From sequence record NC_054929.1: DNA of 64,000 bases; one strand, given 5' to 3'. Every line of letters starts with the position of its first letter. The stretch's first letter is position 1. This document shows, one piece after another, positions 3,758-41,289 of the stretch. The translations under genes were made by a program, and so were the position numbers. The notes beneath the pieces were generated by a model. The model saw only the letters and a program-made list of their open reading frames with translations, searched no databases and had not been told where the DNA came from. The stretch is from Escherichia phage PE37.

Positions 3758-3913
3758 TAAGACCCCGGCAGTTTTATGGTGTACCTCTTGAATGTGAATG
3801 ATGACGGGTTTATGGTTATCCTGTCGTTAAATATCCAAAACCTATGTTCCCCTTGAGGGCTTGCGCAGGCAATGCCAATAAGTCCTGCATTTTCATTTAA
3901 AAGAGAATTTATA

Positions 3914-8932: not shown

Positions 8933-8955
8933 GAATAAACACTAGAGAGGATATG

Positions 8956-11049
8956 ATGGAACTCATTACAGAATTATTTGACGAAGATACTACTCTTCCG
9001 ATTACAAACTTAAATCCAAAGAAGAAAATACCACAAATTTTTTCAGTTCACGTTGATGATGCAATTGAACAACCAGGCTTTCGTTTATGTACCTATACAT
9101 CTGGAGGTGATACTAATCGCGATTTAAAGATGGGAGATAAAATGATGCATATTGTTCCTTTTACATTAACTGCTAAAGGTTCAATTGCTAAATTAAAAGG
9201 TCTGGGTCCAAGCCCGATTAATTATATCAATTCAGTTTTTACTGTTGCAATGCAAACAATGCGTCAATATAAAATTGATGCCTGTATGCTTCGTATTCTT
9301 AAGTCTAAAACTGCTGGCCAAGCTCGACAAATTCAAGTTATTGCTGATAGACTTATCCGTAGTCGTTCAGGTGGTAGATACGTCCTTCTTAAGGAACTCT
9401 GGGATTACGATAAAAAGTATGCATATATTCTTATACATCGCAAAAATGTATCACTAGAAGACATTCCAGGAGTTCCGGAAATTAGTACCGAGCTCTTTAC
9501 TAAAGTTGAATCGAAGGTCGGTGATGTTTATATCAATAAAGATACTGGAGCTCAAGTAACTAAAAATGAGGCAATTGCAGCATCTATTGCGCAAGAAAAT
9601 GATAAACGTTCTGACCAAGCTGTAATCGTTAAAGTTAAAATTTCACGTAGAGCAATTGCGCAAAGTCAATCATTGGAATCTTCTAGATTTGAAAGTGAAT
9701 TATTCCAGAAGTATGAATCTACCGCAGCTAATTTCAATAAACCTGCTACCGCTCCTTTAATTCCCGAAGCAGAAGAAATGAAGCTTGGAATTAATTCGTT
9801 AGCTTCTAAAACTAAGGCAGCAAAAATTATTGCTGAAGGAACTGCGAATGAACTTCACTATGACTATAAATTCTTTTCAAAAAGTGAGGTTGATGAAGTT
9901 TCAGAAAAAATTAAAGATGTAATTTTTAACGCAATCAAAAATGAACCAACTACTTCAATAAAATGTTTAGAGAAATACGCAGCAGCTGTTAATAAATTCT
10001 TTGAAGAATATAAAGATAATTGGCTTGATAAACATAATAAAACTCGTAAAGGGCAACCAGATGAAGTCTGGGGAGAAATAACTAAAAATGCATGGAATAC
10101 AGCAAAAACTAAATTCCTCAAACGAATGATTTATAGCTTTTCTGGAATTGGTGCTGGTCCAATGATTGATATTACTATTGCCCGTGATGGTTCTAAATAT
10201 ACTCCATCACAAAAGCGAGGTATTAGAGAATATTGTGGTTCAGGATATACAGACATTAATAATCTTCTTTTAGGTCGTTACAATCCAGAACGATATGATG
10301 TAATGAGTGAAAAAGAAATTGAATCTGCTATAAATAACTTAGATTCAGCTTTTGAAAATGGTGACCGTATACCAGAAGGCATTACAGTTTATCGTGCTCA
10401 AAGTATGACTGCTCCTATATATGAAGCGTTAGTTAAAAATAAAGTGTTCTATTTCAGAAATTTTGTATCTACTTCTTTAACTCCTATTATTTTTGGACGT
10501 TTTGGAATCACACATGCTGGTATTGGTCTTTTAGAACCAGAAGCTCGCAATGAATTAACAGTTGATAAAAATGAAGAAGGAATAACTATTAATCCAAACG
10601 AAATAAGAGCGTATAAAGAAAATCCTGAATACGTTAAAGTTCAAATAGGATGGGCAATTGATGGAGCTCATAAAGTTAATGTTGTATATCCAGGAAGTCT
10701 TGGAATAGCAACAGAAGCTGAAGTTATTCTACCGCGTGGATTGATGGTCAAAGTTAATAAAATAACTGATGCTTCTAATAATGACGGAACAACATCTAAT
10801 AATACAAAACTCATTCAAGCTGAAGTTATGACCACGGAAGAGCTCACCGAATCGGTAATCTATGATGGAGACCATTTAATGGAAACTGGTGAATTGGTTG
10901 CAATGACAGGTGATACTGAAATAGAAGACAGAGTTGACTTTGCATCATTTGTTTCATCAAATGTTAAACAGAAAGTCGAATCATCTCTTGGAATTATTGC
11001 GTCTTGCATAGATATTACAAACATGCCTTACAAGTTCGTTCAAGGATAA
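8956..11049 (+). CDS. alt: Alt ADP-ribosyltransferase (virion-packaged)
   Basis: N-terminus MELITELFD; R (YRAQ), STS and EAE motifs of the R-S-E ADP-ribosyltransferase fold; late promoter TATAAATA upstream. Confidence 0.9.
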   Translation: MELITELFDEDTTLPITNLNPKKKIPQIFSVHVDDAIEQPGFRLCTYTSGGDTNRDLKMGDKMMHIVPFTLTAKGSIAKLKGLGPSPINYINSVFTVAMQTMRQYKIDACMLRILKSKTAGQARQIQVIADRLIRSRSGGRYVLLKELWDYDKKYAYILIHRKNVSLEDIPGVPEISTELFTKVESKVGDVYINKDTGAQVTKNEAIAASIAQENDKRSDQAVIVKVKISRRAIAQSQSLESSRFESELFQKYESTAANFNKPATAPLIPEAEEMKLGINSLASKTKAAKIIAEGTANELHYDYKFFSKSEVDEVSEKIKDVIFNAIKNEPTTSIKCLEKYAAAVNKFFEEYKDNWLDKHNKTRKGQPDEVWGEITKNAWNTAKTKFLKRMIYSFSGIGAGPMIDITIARDGSKYTPSQKRGIREYCGSGYTDINNLLLGRYNPERYDVMSEKEIESAINNLDSAFENGDRIPEGITVYRAQSMTAPIYEALVKNKVFYFRNFVSTSLTPIIFGRFGITHAGIGLLEPEARNELTVDKNEEGITINPNEIRAYKENPEYVKVQIGWAIDGAHKVNVVYPGSLGIATEAEVILPRGLMVKVNKITDASNNDGTTSNNTKLIQAEVMTTEELTESVIYDGDHLMETGELVAMTGDTEIEDRVDFASFVSSNVKQKVESSLGIIASCIDITNMPYKFVQG

Positions 11050-11052
11050 ATC

Positions 11053-13110
11053 ATGGAACTTATTACAGAATTATTTGACGGCGCTTCGGCGCCGGTTGTT
11101 AACTTAAATCCTAAGCATAAAATACCACAAATTTTTGCTATTCAAGCCGGCGAAGAAAGCGTGCTTCCTGGATTTAGATTTTGTACATACACCTCTGGTG
11201 GTGATACGAATAAAAACGTTAAGCCAGGCGATAAAATGATGCATATCGTAATGATAGGTGTTAATGAGAAATTATCGTTAGTTAAGCTTAAAAACTTGGG
11301 TGGAAATCCAATTGGTGTCATTAATGCGGTTTTTGATACTGCTCTTCAAACAATGAAACAGTATAAAATTGATGCATGTTTATTCCGCGTACTAAAAAGT
11401 AAAACAAATGGCGCAGCTCGTCAAATGCAAGTTATTGCTGACCGTTTAGTACGTACTAAAGGAGCAGGTCGATATGTTCTTTTAAAGGAAATCTGGGATT
11501 ATGATAAAAAGTATGCATATATTATGGTTTACCGTAAAAATGCCAATTTAGAAGACATTCCAGGTGTACCTCCTATTTCAACTGAGTTATTCACAAAAGT
11601 TGAATCAAAGGTTGGTGATGTTTATGTAGACGTTAAAACAGGTAATGCTGTTCCTAAAGCTGTTGCTGTTGCCGCTTCTATTGCTTTAGAAAATGATAAG
11701 CGCACGGATCAAGCTGTTATTCAGAAAACTAAAATTAGTCGTCGATTAGCAGCACAAGCTCAATATTCTACTGTCGATGCTTCACTTCAGGGTGATAGCT
11801 TCGCCGCTAAGAAATATCAAGAGTTTGAATCTAAAGTTCCGGTATATAAAGCAGAAGGACCAATGAACTCTGGCGTTATTCAGATTGGTTCAAACTTCAG
11901 CAAAGGAGCTATCGGTGGTATGAGAAGTGCTTCTCGTTTTAAATCTAATGATTATGAACTAGAAAGTTTCCGAAATCATATTGCATTAGCCCATGCACGT
12001 TTACGCGATCCATCTATCAAGCTGCAGAGCGATACATCATATCAAGGTTCCCAGGAATATTTAAAGAATAAAGACTTCTTTAATTACAAAACTGATAAAA
12101 TTTTAAGCGATCTTGCTGATATTAATATTTCTAATAGTTTTGATGTTATTAAGAAAATTATCAATGATTTAGTTAAAGGTTCTAAAGCTACACCAGATGA
12201 AAAGACAGCTATTATTCAATTTGTAATGAATGGAATTTATAAATTAATTGATGAATCCGCTGCTCAGGCGTATGAATATGCAAGCACTGAAGTAACTCCA
12301 AAAGGATTAACTCAGGCTGAGTCCGATGTAATTGAAGATTATTGTGCAGATTCATATGTTGAAATGAACTCGTTCCTCTTGGGTAAACCAGATTCTACCC
12401 GTGAAGAATACATGGAACGAGCTATTAAACACATCGAGACAATGGATTCTGCCTTTGCCAAAGGATCAGTTCTTCCTCCAGGAACTACGCTTTATCGTGG
12501 ACAAGAAGTTACCTTTAAAACTTTACGTCATAATATTGAAAATAAAATGTTCTACTTCAAGAACTTCGTATCCACATCGCTTAAACCAAATATCTTCGGT
12601 GAGCATGGTAAAAACTATATGGCTCTAGATGATTCCGGTGCAGTATTTTCTGGTGAAGGAGAAGGTTCCGTTGATGCTGAAGATTTAATGCATATGGGTA
12701 GTCATTCTGCTTATGCGAATGAAGATGCTGAAACTAGCGTGGGTATGGTAATAAAAGGAGCTGAGCGAATTAAAGTTATCGTTCCAGGTCATTTATCAGG
12801 ATTTCCATCAGAAGCTGAAGTTATTCTACCGCGTGGAATTTTGCTGAAGATTAATAAAGTGAGTACTTACTTTATGAAAGAAACTGCTTATAACAAGTAT
12901 CTAATCGAAGGTACAATCGTTCCTCCTTCTGAACAATTAGAAGAATCAGTATATGATGGCGACCATCTAATGGAAACTGGTGAAGTTCGTCCAATGGCTG
13001 GATTTAATCAATTCCTTGTAGAAGAATCAAAAGAAGAGGAAAACGAAGTTTCTCAAATCTTAGCTTCTTTGGTTAACATCAACGGAATGTCTAAAAAGTT
13101 CAAGATGTAG
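11053..13110 (+). CDS. Alt-like ADP-ribosyltransferase paralog
   Basis: 685 aa; same MELITELFD N-terminus, conserved YRGQ/STS/EAEVILPRG motifs, divergent middle. Confidence 0.85.
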   Translation: MELITELFDGASAPVVNLNPKHKIPQIFAIQAGEESVLPGFRFCTYTSGGDTNKNVKPGDKMMHIVMIGVNEKLSLVKLKNLGGNPIGVINAVFDTALQTMKQYKIDACLFRVLKSKTNGAARQMQVIADRLVRTKGAGRYVLLKEIWDYDKKYAYIMVYRKNANLEDIPGVPPISTELFTKVESKVGDVYVDVKTGNAVPKAVAVAASIALENDKRTDQAVIQKTKISRRLAAQAQYSTVDASLQGDSFAAKKYQEFESKVPVYKAEGPMNSGVIQIGSNFSKGAIGGMRSASRFKSNDYELESFRNHIALAHARLRDPSIKLQSDTSYQGSQEYLKNKDFFNYKTDKILSDLADINISNSFDVIKKIINDLVKGSKATPDEKTAIIQFVMNGIYKLIDESAAQAYEYASTEVTPKGLTQAESDVIEDYCADSYVEMNSFLLGKPDSTREEYMERAIKHIETMDSAFAKGSVLPPGTTLYRGQEVTFKTLRHNIENKMFYFKNFVSTSLKPNIFGEHGKNYMALDDSGAVFSGEGEGSVDAEDLMHMGSHSAYANEDAETSVGMVIKGAERIKVIVPGHLSGFPSEAEVILPRGILLKINKVSTYFMKETAYNKYLIEGTIVPPSEQLEESVYDGDHLMETGEVRPMAGFNQFLVEESKEEENEVSQILASLVNINGMSKKFKM

Positions 13111-29962: not shown

Positions 29963-30772
29963 TTAGAAACGAGATGCGACTTTCGCATATACACTTACAA
30001 TATCTTCTGCACCTTGCGCAGATTTATCTTCTACAGCTTCAGTGACGAAATTCAGTCCGGCTGCTTCAGTATCAGGAGTATTTATATTCTCAGTAATAGT
30101 GCTTTCATCTTTATTAGATTTCTTCACCATTTCTACGATAGCACTCAATTTGCTTGAGAATGCATCTGAATAATCAATACCTTCGACCAGAGCAGAGACT
30201 TTTTCTTTTTGAGACTCAGTCAGATCTTTAGTACTTTCGCTCAATGCCACTTCACGCTGCACATAATTGATATATGCGTCACGCTTATTGAGTTCTTCGA
30301 ACAGACGAGCTGATTCTTCTTTATGTTCTTGCAGTTCTTCTTCCATTTCAGCTACAACATCAACTGATTCTTCTGGAACAACAACGTTGTGTTCAACGAA
30401 GAGCTCTTTCAATCCACCAAGCATGGATTCAAACAGTTCGGCTTTGATACCTTTATCTACTGCTAATTTATTTTCAGTGAGCCATTCTTTTGCAAGATGG
30501 TCAAGGAATTTAGAAGCTTGCTCAGCGATTTTCTTCTCAGCTTTTTCTTCTGCTTCTTCTTTATTTTTTTCTACTTCTTCTTCTGCTTTTTCAGCAATTT
30601 TAGCGATATGAGATTCAGCTAATTTAACGGCGTGCTGCTTGACGGTAGCTTCGAATACAGTGCCGAAAGTTTCTTTTGCTTCCGGAGAAATATTAACTGA
30701 TTCGAAAATACTATCAAGAGCAACGGAAGCATCAATTTTCTGCGCTTCGGCAATCAGTTGTTCTTTAAGCAT
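29963..30772 (-). CDS. 22: prohead core scaffold protein
   Basis: 269 aa; Glu/Lys-rich coiled coil; late promoter at 30800-30807. Confidence 0.85.
   Translation of the reverse strand: MLKEQLIAEAQKIDASVALDSIFESVNISPEAKETFGTVFEATVKQHAVKLAESHIAKIAEKAEEEVEKNKEEAEEKAEKKIAEQASKFLDHLAKEWLTENKLAVDKGIKAELFESMLGGLKELFVEHNVVVPEESVDVVAEMEEELQEHKEESARLFEELNKRDAYINYVQREVALSESTKDLTESQKEKVSALVEGIDYSDAFSSKLSAIVEMVKKSNKDESTITENINTPDTEAAGLNFVTEAVEDKSAQGAEDIVSVYAKVASRF
30079..30086 (-). promoter_or_regulatory. late promoter candidate TATAAATA inside gene 22 3' region (gene 23)
   Basis: exact 8-mer on minus strand about 135 nt upstream of gene 23 ATG. Confidence 0.45.
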
Positions 30773-30799: not shown

Positions 30800-30807
30800 T
30801 ATTTATA
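30800..30807 (-). promoter_or_regulatory. late promoter TATAAATA (gene 22)
   Basis: exact 8-mer on minus strand 28 nt upstream of gene 22 ATG, overlapping gene 21 stop. Confidence 0.7.
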
Positions 30808-31441
30808 ACGCTTTTTTCATGGCCTCTGCGAGAGCCATATAGGCGTCATCGGCACTTGTATCGGCTTCAGCCGTCTGTGATTCTGTAATTTCCTTAGGAG
30901 TTACCCATGCATCTGGAGCACTTGGACCCCATACTGCATCAACACCTACAGTTAATTTGAATCCTTCGTTTACGATACGATAACCTTTATTTGTGTCAGT
31001 CAATGAACCTAATCCACGAGAAGAAACTCCTGGAATCCATCCGGCACGAATATTAGCTGCTAATTTATCTCCAGGACCATGGTCACCTTCAATAACACGA
31101 GCTCGTCCGTATACGTCATTTCCTTTCCACCACATATCTTCTATAATGATAGCGGCTTGCATCGGGTCAACATTAGCGCGTGGAGGATGATTTAATTCTC
31201 CGAGAGCTTGTTTAGTTAAAACTTGCTCATTAATATAGTCTTTTACCGCTTTTTCTAATATACGTTTTGGATAAAGACGTTTATTTCTATTGACGACTTC
31301 TGCTTGCATGAATATTCCTTCGATGTATAAACCAGGTTTTAAACCTAAGTCTTTCCCATCATGGGATTCAAGCATTGGCACACCATCAATAATTTCGCCA
31401 GGTTGACCCCAAGTTTCAATTAGCAATTGGGGTTCATTCAT
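30803..31441 (-). CDS. 21: prohead core protein / prohead protease
   Basis: 212 aa; synteny between genes 22 and 68. Confidence 0.9.
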   Translation of the reverse strand: MNEPQLLIETWGQPGEIIDGVPMLESHDGKDLGLKPGLYIEGIFMQAEVVNRNKRLYPKRILEKAVKDYINEQVLTKQALGELNHPPRANVDPMQAAIIIEDMWWKGNDVYGRARVIEGDHGPGDKLAANIRAGWIPGVSSRGLGSLTDTNKGYRIVNEGFKLTVGVDAVWGPSAPDAWVTPKEITESQTAEADTSADDAYMALAEAMKKAL

Positions 31442-31866
31442 TAGCTTAATCCTAATGCTTTACGGCGTTTAAGAGCTTTTTTACGCTTACGCTGAGCACG
31501 AGATTGACCTGCTGGATTGGCAATCTTCGTTTTGGTAGCTTTACGAGCAATTTGTCTACGTTTTGCTTTAGACAACCCGGTAGTTTGAAATGCATTACGT
31601 TCGCGGGTTTTGCGATCTTTAGTGCGAGTAATTTCACCACGGGCAGAAACATGTTTAACAATAAATTCATTTAACGGCATATTTTCATTAATAGAAGCTA
31701 ATGCAACCGCTAAATCAGTTTCATCATCAAGCATATTCTCGATAATTTTATTTATATCGTCTTTATTTAAAGCAGAAGACAACTCGTCAAAGCGACCCTG
31801 TGCTTCAGGAATAAGTGCTTCGACATTCTCGAGAACTAATTCATGAGTTTCAGGGATTAGAATCAT
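31441..31866 (-). CDS. 68: prohead core protein
   Basis: 141 aa; synteny. Confidence 0.75.
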
Positions 31867-32100
31867 TATTCATCATCCTCGTCTTCGTCAGAGTCTTTGT
31901 CTTTTTGTCGTCTTTATCATCATCGCTATCTTCGTCGTCATCCTCGTCATCAGGTTCTTCACCCTCGATTAAGAAATTACGAGCGATAGTGATTTTTTCT
32001 TCTTTGATTAAATCAGTCGTTCTTGCAGCCATGGCTTCAGCAAATAATTTACGAGCGGCTACGAGGTCGTTTGATTTAATAGCTTCAATTAAACCTTCCA

Positions 32101-32101
<1 letters not shown>
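31850..32101 (-). CDS. 67: prohead core protein gp67 (3' end shows a frame anomaly)
   Basis: N-terminal 67 aa typical, then the acidic tract leaves the reading frame at an A5 run; see findings. Confidence 0.7.
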
Positions 32102-33726
<1,625 letters not shown>

Positions 33727-41285: not shown

Positions 41286-41289
41286 CATG

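Follow-up and report, generated by a model that had tools for sequence, protein, structure and literature searches.

Gene 67 of Escherichia phage PE37 probably carries a tolerated one-base deletion at an A-run that is also shortened in other T4-type phages

Gene 67 and its neighbors in the head-gene block

The window analyzed in the present study is a stretch of 64,000 nucleotides of Escherichia phage PE37 (NC_054929.1). It contains a T4-type block of head genes on the minus strand, in which gene 67, encoding the prohead core protein gp67, is located between portal gene 20 and genes 68, 21, and 22, as in T4, RB51, AR1, and wV7. The features of this region are listed below in window coordinates.

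29963-30772, minus strand: scaffold gene 22, part of the T4-type head-gene block
30803-31441, minus strand: protease gene 21, part of the same block
31441-31866, minus strand: gene 68, prohead core protein, 141 aa, intact, with length and start codon as in RB51, AR1, T4, and wV7
31850-31900, minus strand: out-of-frame tail of 16 residues and TGA stop, extending 17 nt into gene 68 and lying outside the Pfam GP67 match
31850-32101, minus strand: gene 67, prohead core protein gp67 in its A5 allele, 83 aa; an ORF with a PF17634 match, 100% identical to the PE37 'prohead core protein'
31864-31868, minus strand: TAATG stop/start junction between the putative ancestral frame of gene 67 and gene 68, the same as in T4
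31866-31901, minus strand: putative ancestral frame, still intact in the DNA, with 11 residues followed by TAA, equal to the C-terminus of allele P0006
31876-31880, minus strand: GAGGA, read directly, a candidate Shine-Dalgarno-like sequence 9 nt upstream of the gene 68 ATG
31901-31907, minus strand: C AAA AAG, read from the sequence, containing zero-frame codons 66 and 67 (both Lys) and the A_AAG tetramer
31902-31906, minus strand: A5 mononucleotide run (TTTTT on the plus strand), putative site of a one-base deletion; A6 in T4 and nearly all relatives
31964-31972, minus strand: Leu-Ile-Glu, residues 44-46, fitting the gp21 protease motif L/I-X-E; a predicted cleavage site
31993-31998, minus strand: second A6 run of gene 67 (gene positions 104-109), intact in the window and used as an internal control
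32101-33687, minus strand: portal gene 20, part of the T4-type head-gene block

As annotated, gene 67 overlaps the start of gene 68 by 17 nt (31850-31866), with the gene 68 ATG at 31866-31864. This overlap had been described in an earlier note on the sequence, and a re-reading agreed with it; the minus-strand AAAAA run that the note placed at plus positions 31902-31906 was likewise recovered, as TTTTT on the plus strand. The junctions between genes 20 and 67 (32099-32103) and between genes 68 and 21 (31439-31443) are both TAATG stop/start overlaps. In relatives with A6, genes 20, 67, 68, and 21 are chained by three identical TAATG junctions, two of which are kept in the window. The 16 residues of the shifted tail have a charge of +2 versus -8 for the 11 residues they replace, and the net charge of the gp67 tail changes by approximately 10 units upon deletion, from -20 to -10.

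Two minor observations concern the neighbors. The portal ORF (32101-33687, minus strand) begins at a TTG in the mechanical ORF list, giving 528 aa, and relatives annotate 524 aa; translation probably starts at an ATG located four codons after the listed TTG. Family PF26830 was matched on homologues of gene 68 at other loci.

The ancestral frame of the gp67 tail

Gp67 of T4 (PIP, the internal-peptide precursor; NP_049783; PF17634) shares with gp67 of the window the gene itself, its position between genes 20 and 68, 46 conserved N-terminal residues that include L-I-E motifs, and an Asp- and Glu-rich acidic tail. However, the T4 gene has A6, encodes 80 aa with an acidic end, and stops at a TAATG junction, whereas that of the window has A5, encodes 83 aa of which the last 16 are neutral to basic, and overlaps gene 68 by 17 nt. 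The run is A6 in RB51, AR1, ESh32, BECP11, wV7, T4, and the IMG/VR locus L017. At this site, A6 versus A5 is the sole difference between the window and the nearest genomes (RB51, AR1, ESh32, BECP11, and wV7).

The insertion of one A at the run yields a gp67 of 78 aa whose TAA (31868-31866) merges with the ATG of gene 68 into TAATG. This reproduced the proposal of the earlier note that an additional A would continue the acidic tract and end exactly at the gene 68 start (31866); moreover, the repaired protein is identical to P0006, a database allele present on 13 contigs (RB68/RB51 type). The Pfam family GP67 (PF17634, cut-off 27 bits) matched the annotated protein of 83 aa with 126 bits over residues 1-68 and profile positions 1-70 of 80, versus 138.7 bits for the repaired protein of 78 aa, which matched end to end (residues 1-78, profile 1-80 of 80). 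A full-length match that includes the acidic C-terminus was obtained with the added A only and not with the annotated frame. Among the 120 best homologs in a collection of 5.8 billion proteins, 114 had the acidic end, 2 were partial, and 4 had the shifted tail; no protein of the A4 or A7 type was present among them. The view that the annotated frame departs from the ancestral acidic frame at the A-run was also borne out by the alignment with T4 gp67 and nearly all homologs.

Based on T4, the nearest genomes, 114 of the 120 homologs, the full Pfam match of the repaired frame, and the neighboring TAATG junctions, we conclude that, as judged by sequence comparison, A6 is the ancestral state, from which the A5 of the window is derived by the loss of one base. 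The acidic resemblance of the other frame is not due to chance because the repaired protein is identical to P0006 and matches Pfam end to end, the difference from the nearest genomes is A6 versus A5 only, and TAATG is present at the neighboring junctions. The openness of the shifted frame was considered as a meaningful signal and rejected, since GAN GAN codons read one base later give ANG, which is never a stop. The earlier note had proposed that orthologs ending in a basic, TKTLTKTR-like tail would speak for the annotated frame. A few records do contain such orthologs; however, they carry the same derived deletion and, thus, provide no evidence that this frame is ancestral.

The source record of phage HY03 (KR269718) calls its gp67 ortholog a 'putative long tail fiber distal subunit'. 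The name is clearly wrong, and it has been passed on as the label of P0048, the largest gp67 cluster.

Phages that carry the A5 run

The A5 run followed by the same shifted tail was found in NiC89 (LC620505; protein BCT70269), for which it is also present in the Logan assembly of run DRR277906, as well as in vB_EcoM_G9062 (MK373779) and FelixPlatter (MZ501065). It was also found in a 73,964-bp Logan contig of run SRR19902444 and in a 2,685-bp Logan contig of run ERR4622923 (L009). The allele is not confined to one assembly or platform, being present in NiC89, G9062, FelixPlatter (Illumina), and the Logan assemblies of three runs. In the deposited records of NiC89, G9062, and FelixPlatter, the tail TKTLT[K/M]TRMMNN... 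is annotated at face value in a protein of 83 or 84 aa. The deletion in these three phages is identical to that of PE37, but their acidic-tract haplotypes and genomes are different, and the exact protein of 83 aa occurs in the PE37 record only. This protein gave no hit when the contig index was queried for exact copies, and its identity to that of PE37 emerged from the homology search. The change at the site is exactly one repeat unit, A6 to A5, and nothing else.

The neighboring genes are of canonical length in the carriers, except in the ERR4622923 contig. This contig has a gp21 of 228 aa (normally 212) and a gp22 split into pieces of 102 and 153 aa, which suggests an error-prone or mixed assembly, and it was therefore given little weight as evidence for A5. 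The SRR19902444 contig contains an additional ORF of 216 aa (L006, 94-744) between sheath gene 18 and tube gene 19, which has no Pfam match and is absent from the other loci. Its presence is the probable reason for the bulk of the 182 indel columns and for the reduced identity (approximately 92.6%); a mobile insert, for example, a homing endonuclease, is one possibility.

Identity among the carriers is 92-98% over 6.2 kb, and they resemble A6 phages at least as closely as they resemble one another; for example, the identity of NiC89 is 98.24% to wV7 and 98.22% to PE37. The best genome match in the phage collection was 97.2% over 24 kb. A5 occurs on at least three upstream acidic-tract haplotypes, and, once repaired, three of the four A5 protein alleles are exactly a common A6 allele: that of PE37 becomes P0006 (13 contigs), that of NiC89 becomes P0007 (9 contigs), and that of G9062 and FelixPlatter becomes P0048 (268 contigs). 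No exact A6 twin was found for the SRR19902444 allele. The IMG/VR locus L017 is of the G9062 type in its local sequence, but has A6. Isolates with G-series names similar to that of G9062 (G10400, G29, G4500, G4507, and D5505) also have A6; their names and neighboring accession numbers suggest a common origin with G9062.

Among deposited relatives, the frequency of A5 is approximately 0.5-2%; more than 95% of relatives have A6 and a single ORF. Run lengths were counted in haplotype groups with at least 99% identity to the query, out of approximately 790 deposited records. In the commonest group, the tail run had lost a base in 3 of 123 records (2 phages), while the second A6 run of gene 67 had lost a base in none of the 123; in another group, A5 was present in 1 of 22 records. 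IMG/VR was scanned with A4, A5, A6, and A7 versions of an 18-21-nt pattern, and the only gene 67 matches were L017 and L019, both with A6, the remainder being unrelated loci. A 28-nt A5 pattern was absent from scans of metagenomes and GTDB genomes; A5 alone was scanned for, and, thus, this result gives no frequency.

Considering the different phages, the three or more haplotypes, the exact A6 twins, and the A6 locus L017, the simplest reading is that A5 arose in several independent one-step events from A6 on common backgrounds; this reading is drawn from comparisons of sequences.

Origin, decoding, and tolerance of the deletion

We consider it likely that gene 67 of PE37 bears a genuine and recurrent slipped-strand deletion, A6 to A5, at a mononucleotide hot spot, and that the phage tolerates it. 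Slipped-strand (Streisinger-type) frameshift hot spots at A-runs are classical in the rII and lysozyme genes of T4. The gene 67 site resembles them in its one-unit change, its run of six As, its T4-type genome, and the recurrence at the same site. However, the T4 hot spots were defined by laboratory mutation rates, whereas recurrence in gene 67 is deduced from natural isolates. As far as its type is concerned, the event would be an ordinary slipped-strand deletion and one more case of a familiar class.

A homopolymer miscall or assembly error in the PE37 record, with a true A6, a normal gp67 of 78 aa, and the 83-aa annotation as an artefact, appears unlikely, but deserves more weight than any other alternative below. 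A single base in a mononucleotide run is the classic type of error, the repaired gene is a common allele that fits Pfam from end to end, and the closest relatives of the window all have A6. Furthermore, the exact protein of the PE37 record has no independent read-based assembly on record. However, in a comparison of the 64 kb of the window with wV7, the gene 67 run was the single place where an unpaired indel changes the frame of a coding ORF, even though the window contains 367 A/T runs of at least 5 and 53 of at least 6; the other indels were compensating pairs in divergent stretches or were located between genes. The second A6 run also argues against an error. A one-base loss in this run would truncate gp67 at approximately 43 aa. 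Random miscalls should strike both A6 runs alike, and selection on real mutations should not; therefore, the contrast between the two runs, although the numbers are small, favors a real mutation. At an Illumina depth of 50-100x, a consensus error in a run of 5 or 6 bases is unlikely. The A6 of the isolates with G-series names, the putative sisters of G9062, is a further argument against an error. At least four further distinct phages, obtained in other laboratories, show the same change; these cases comprise read-based Logan assemblies and FelixPlatter, which was sequenced on an Illumina NextSeq at 50-100x (PMC8594841). A real deletion may instead have occurred once, with an old A5 allele spreading among Tequatroviruses by recombination rather than recurring at a hot spot. 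T4-type phages are mosaic, and all carriers share the 15 bases 5' and the 21 bases 3' of the run; in NiC89, the first difference is at the 22nd base 3' (GAT for GAA). G9062 and FelixPlatter show no difference in gene 67 or in the 750-bp alignment, but differ by 2.4% over 6 kb. However, exact A6 twins exist for three of the four A5 protein alleles, and the allele is rare and scattered. Since the A5 alleles differ 22 nt from the run (GAA/GAT) and just upstream of it, a single origin would require several very short exchanges, and we regard it as very improbable.

It is similarly improbable that the deletion is compensated rather than tolerated, with A5 partly decoded by -1 slippage on AAA-AAG or by stuttering of RNA polymerase, to give the wild-type gp67 of 78 aa. 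The zero frame reads C AAA AAG, and a -1 slip would restore both the exact protein of the A6 type and the TAATG junction. The tetramer A_AAG is the most shift-prone in E. coli, through the re-pairing of Lys-tRNA from AAG to AAA (PMC4066793, PMC5009743), and low-level compensatory frameshifting at run indels has been documented, for example, in herpesvirus thymidine kinase (PMC5009743). With a strong 3' stimulator, A_AAG supports up to 5.6% frameshifting; however, without a stimulator, tetramers as a group reach approximately 0.15% versus a background of 0.11% (Sharma et al. 2014, PMC4066793). No stimulatory RNA structure was found 3' of the run, where folds of 81 and 161 nt were no better than those of shuffled sequences (z of -0.32 and +0.19), and no GGAGG-like sequence was visible by eye upstream. 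An A5 run is too short for appreciable transcriptional slippage. The gene resembles dnaX and IS elements with -1 frameshifting (A_AAG, A_AAA_AAG) in its in-frame AAA-AAG and the defined trans-frame product of a slip (PMC4066793, PMC5009743). However, in contrast to these systems, it has neither a slippery P-site triplet (the P-site part, C AA, offers no cognate re-pairing) nor a detectable stimulatory structure, and its two-frame arrangement is not conserved. Approximately 340 copies of gp67 are needed per prohead (PMC9958956), such that a sub-percent rescue would supply few molecules. The data give no support to slippage by design, whether ribosomal or transcriptional, and fewer than approximately 2% of relatives have the arrangement. 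Another idea is that the A6/A5 run is a reversible, hypermutable switch of the gp67 tail charge (approximately -20 versus -10) and of coupling to gene 68. In a subpopulation, such a switch could alter the determination of head size or the composition of the core, perhaps with low-level -1 slippage on AAA-AAG as a buffer that restores wild-type gp67; we give this idea hardly more credit than compensation. Accordingly, among the three causes offered in the earlier note, genuine mutation fits best because it recurs in other phages, slippage by design is unlikely for want of a structure and of conservation, and a sequencing error is retained as an unlikely explanation for the PE37 record.

Under the preferred reading, a genuine deletion that the phage tolerates, one A would have been lost by slipped-strand mispairing during replication at the hot-spot run. 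Translation would then move one base forward after Lys67, exchanging the last 11 of the 32 acidic-tail residues for 16 unrelated residues, and the stop at the TAATG junction would be replaced by a TGA located 17 nt into gene 68. Several properties may explain the tolerance of this change. Residues 1-67 would be untouched, comprising the 46 conserved N-terminal residues and 21 residues of the acidic tract. The altered tail lies beyond an L-I-E motif and would probably be cut by gp21 and discarded during head maturation. The candidate ribosome-binding site and the start codon of gene 68 would be kept, and gp68 is dispensable in T4; among core proteins, gp68 is listed as dispensable and gp67 is not (PMC9958956).

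The gp21 protease cuts after L/I-X-E and degrades gp67, and small peptides derived from gp67 leave the head (PMC9026906, PMC9958956). Gp67 of the window has three such motifs: LIE at 4-6, IKE at 32-34, and LIE at 44-46. The positions of these motifs suggest that gp21 probably frees the acidic tail (residue 47 onward) as a separate fragment from the helical N-terminal part. In the A5 allele, gene 67 ribosomes stop 14 nt past the gene 68 ATG instead of on it, and this later stop may weaken the coupling between genes 67 and 68. T4 gene 67 has been described as essential. PE37, a lytic phage of bovine intestinal origin, has served in biocontrol experiments, and FelixPlatter is a lytic phage used experimentally (PMC8594841); both are viable, such that a real allele would require the shifted gp67 to function. 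On the other hand, the rarity of A5, with only approximately 0.5-2% of deposited relatives and no match in the metagenome and GTDB scans, suggests a slight cost, such that the allele would be mildly deleterious rather than neutral. We speculate that this rarity fits a mutation-selection balance together with single-plaque bottlenecks.

The gp67 proteins of 83 aa in PE37, NiC89, G9062, and FelixPlatter should be flagged as frameshift variants of the 78-79-aa protein and not as distinct orthologs. A real allele would mean that a plaque-forming phage can do without the 11 terminal residues of the acidic tail in an essential T4-type scaffold protein and without the exact TAATG coupling, and that one A6 run of gene 67 recurrently mutates with surviving variants, while the other never varies. 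The allele would then represent a natural deletion experiment on the gp67 tail, of modest value and without a new mechanism. No paper discussing the A5 allele was found in the literature, which was searched on related subjects rather than on the allele itself.

Other parts of the window were noted in the comparison with wV7. At 41286, the window has one additional C in a C-run (GCGGCCCCATG), in a gap between wac (fibritin) and gene 13 that is non-coding according to the wV7 annotation. Indels at 1168, 3798-3853, and 4970, including a 44-nt deletion at 3798, are outside any ORF of at least 60 aa; they probably represent variation between genes, close to the cd/pseT end of the window. The tandem plus-strand ORFs at 8953-11049 (698 aa) and 11053-13110 (685 aa) are the counterparts of a pair of neighboring Alt-like ADP-ribosyltransferase genes in the wV7 annotation. 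Each cross-matches the wV7 counterpart of the other with approximately 68% nucleotide identity, which suggests a tandem pair of paralogs.
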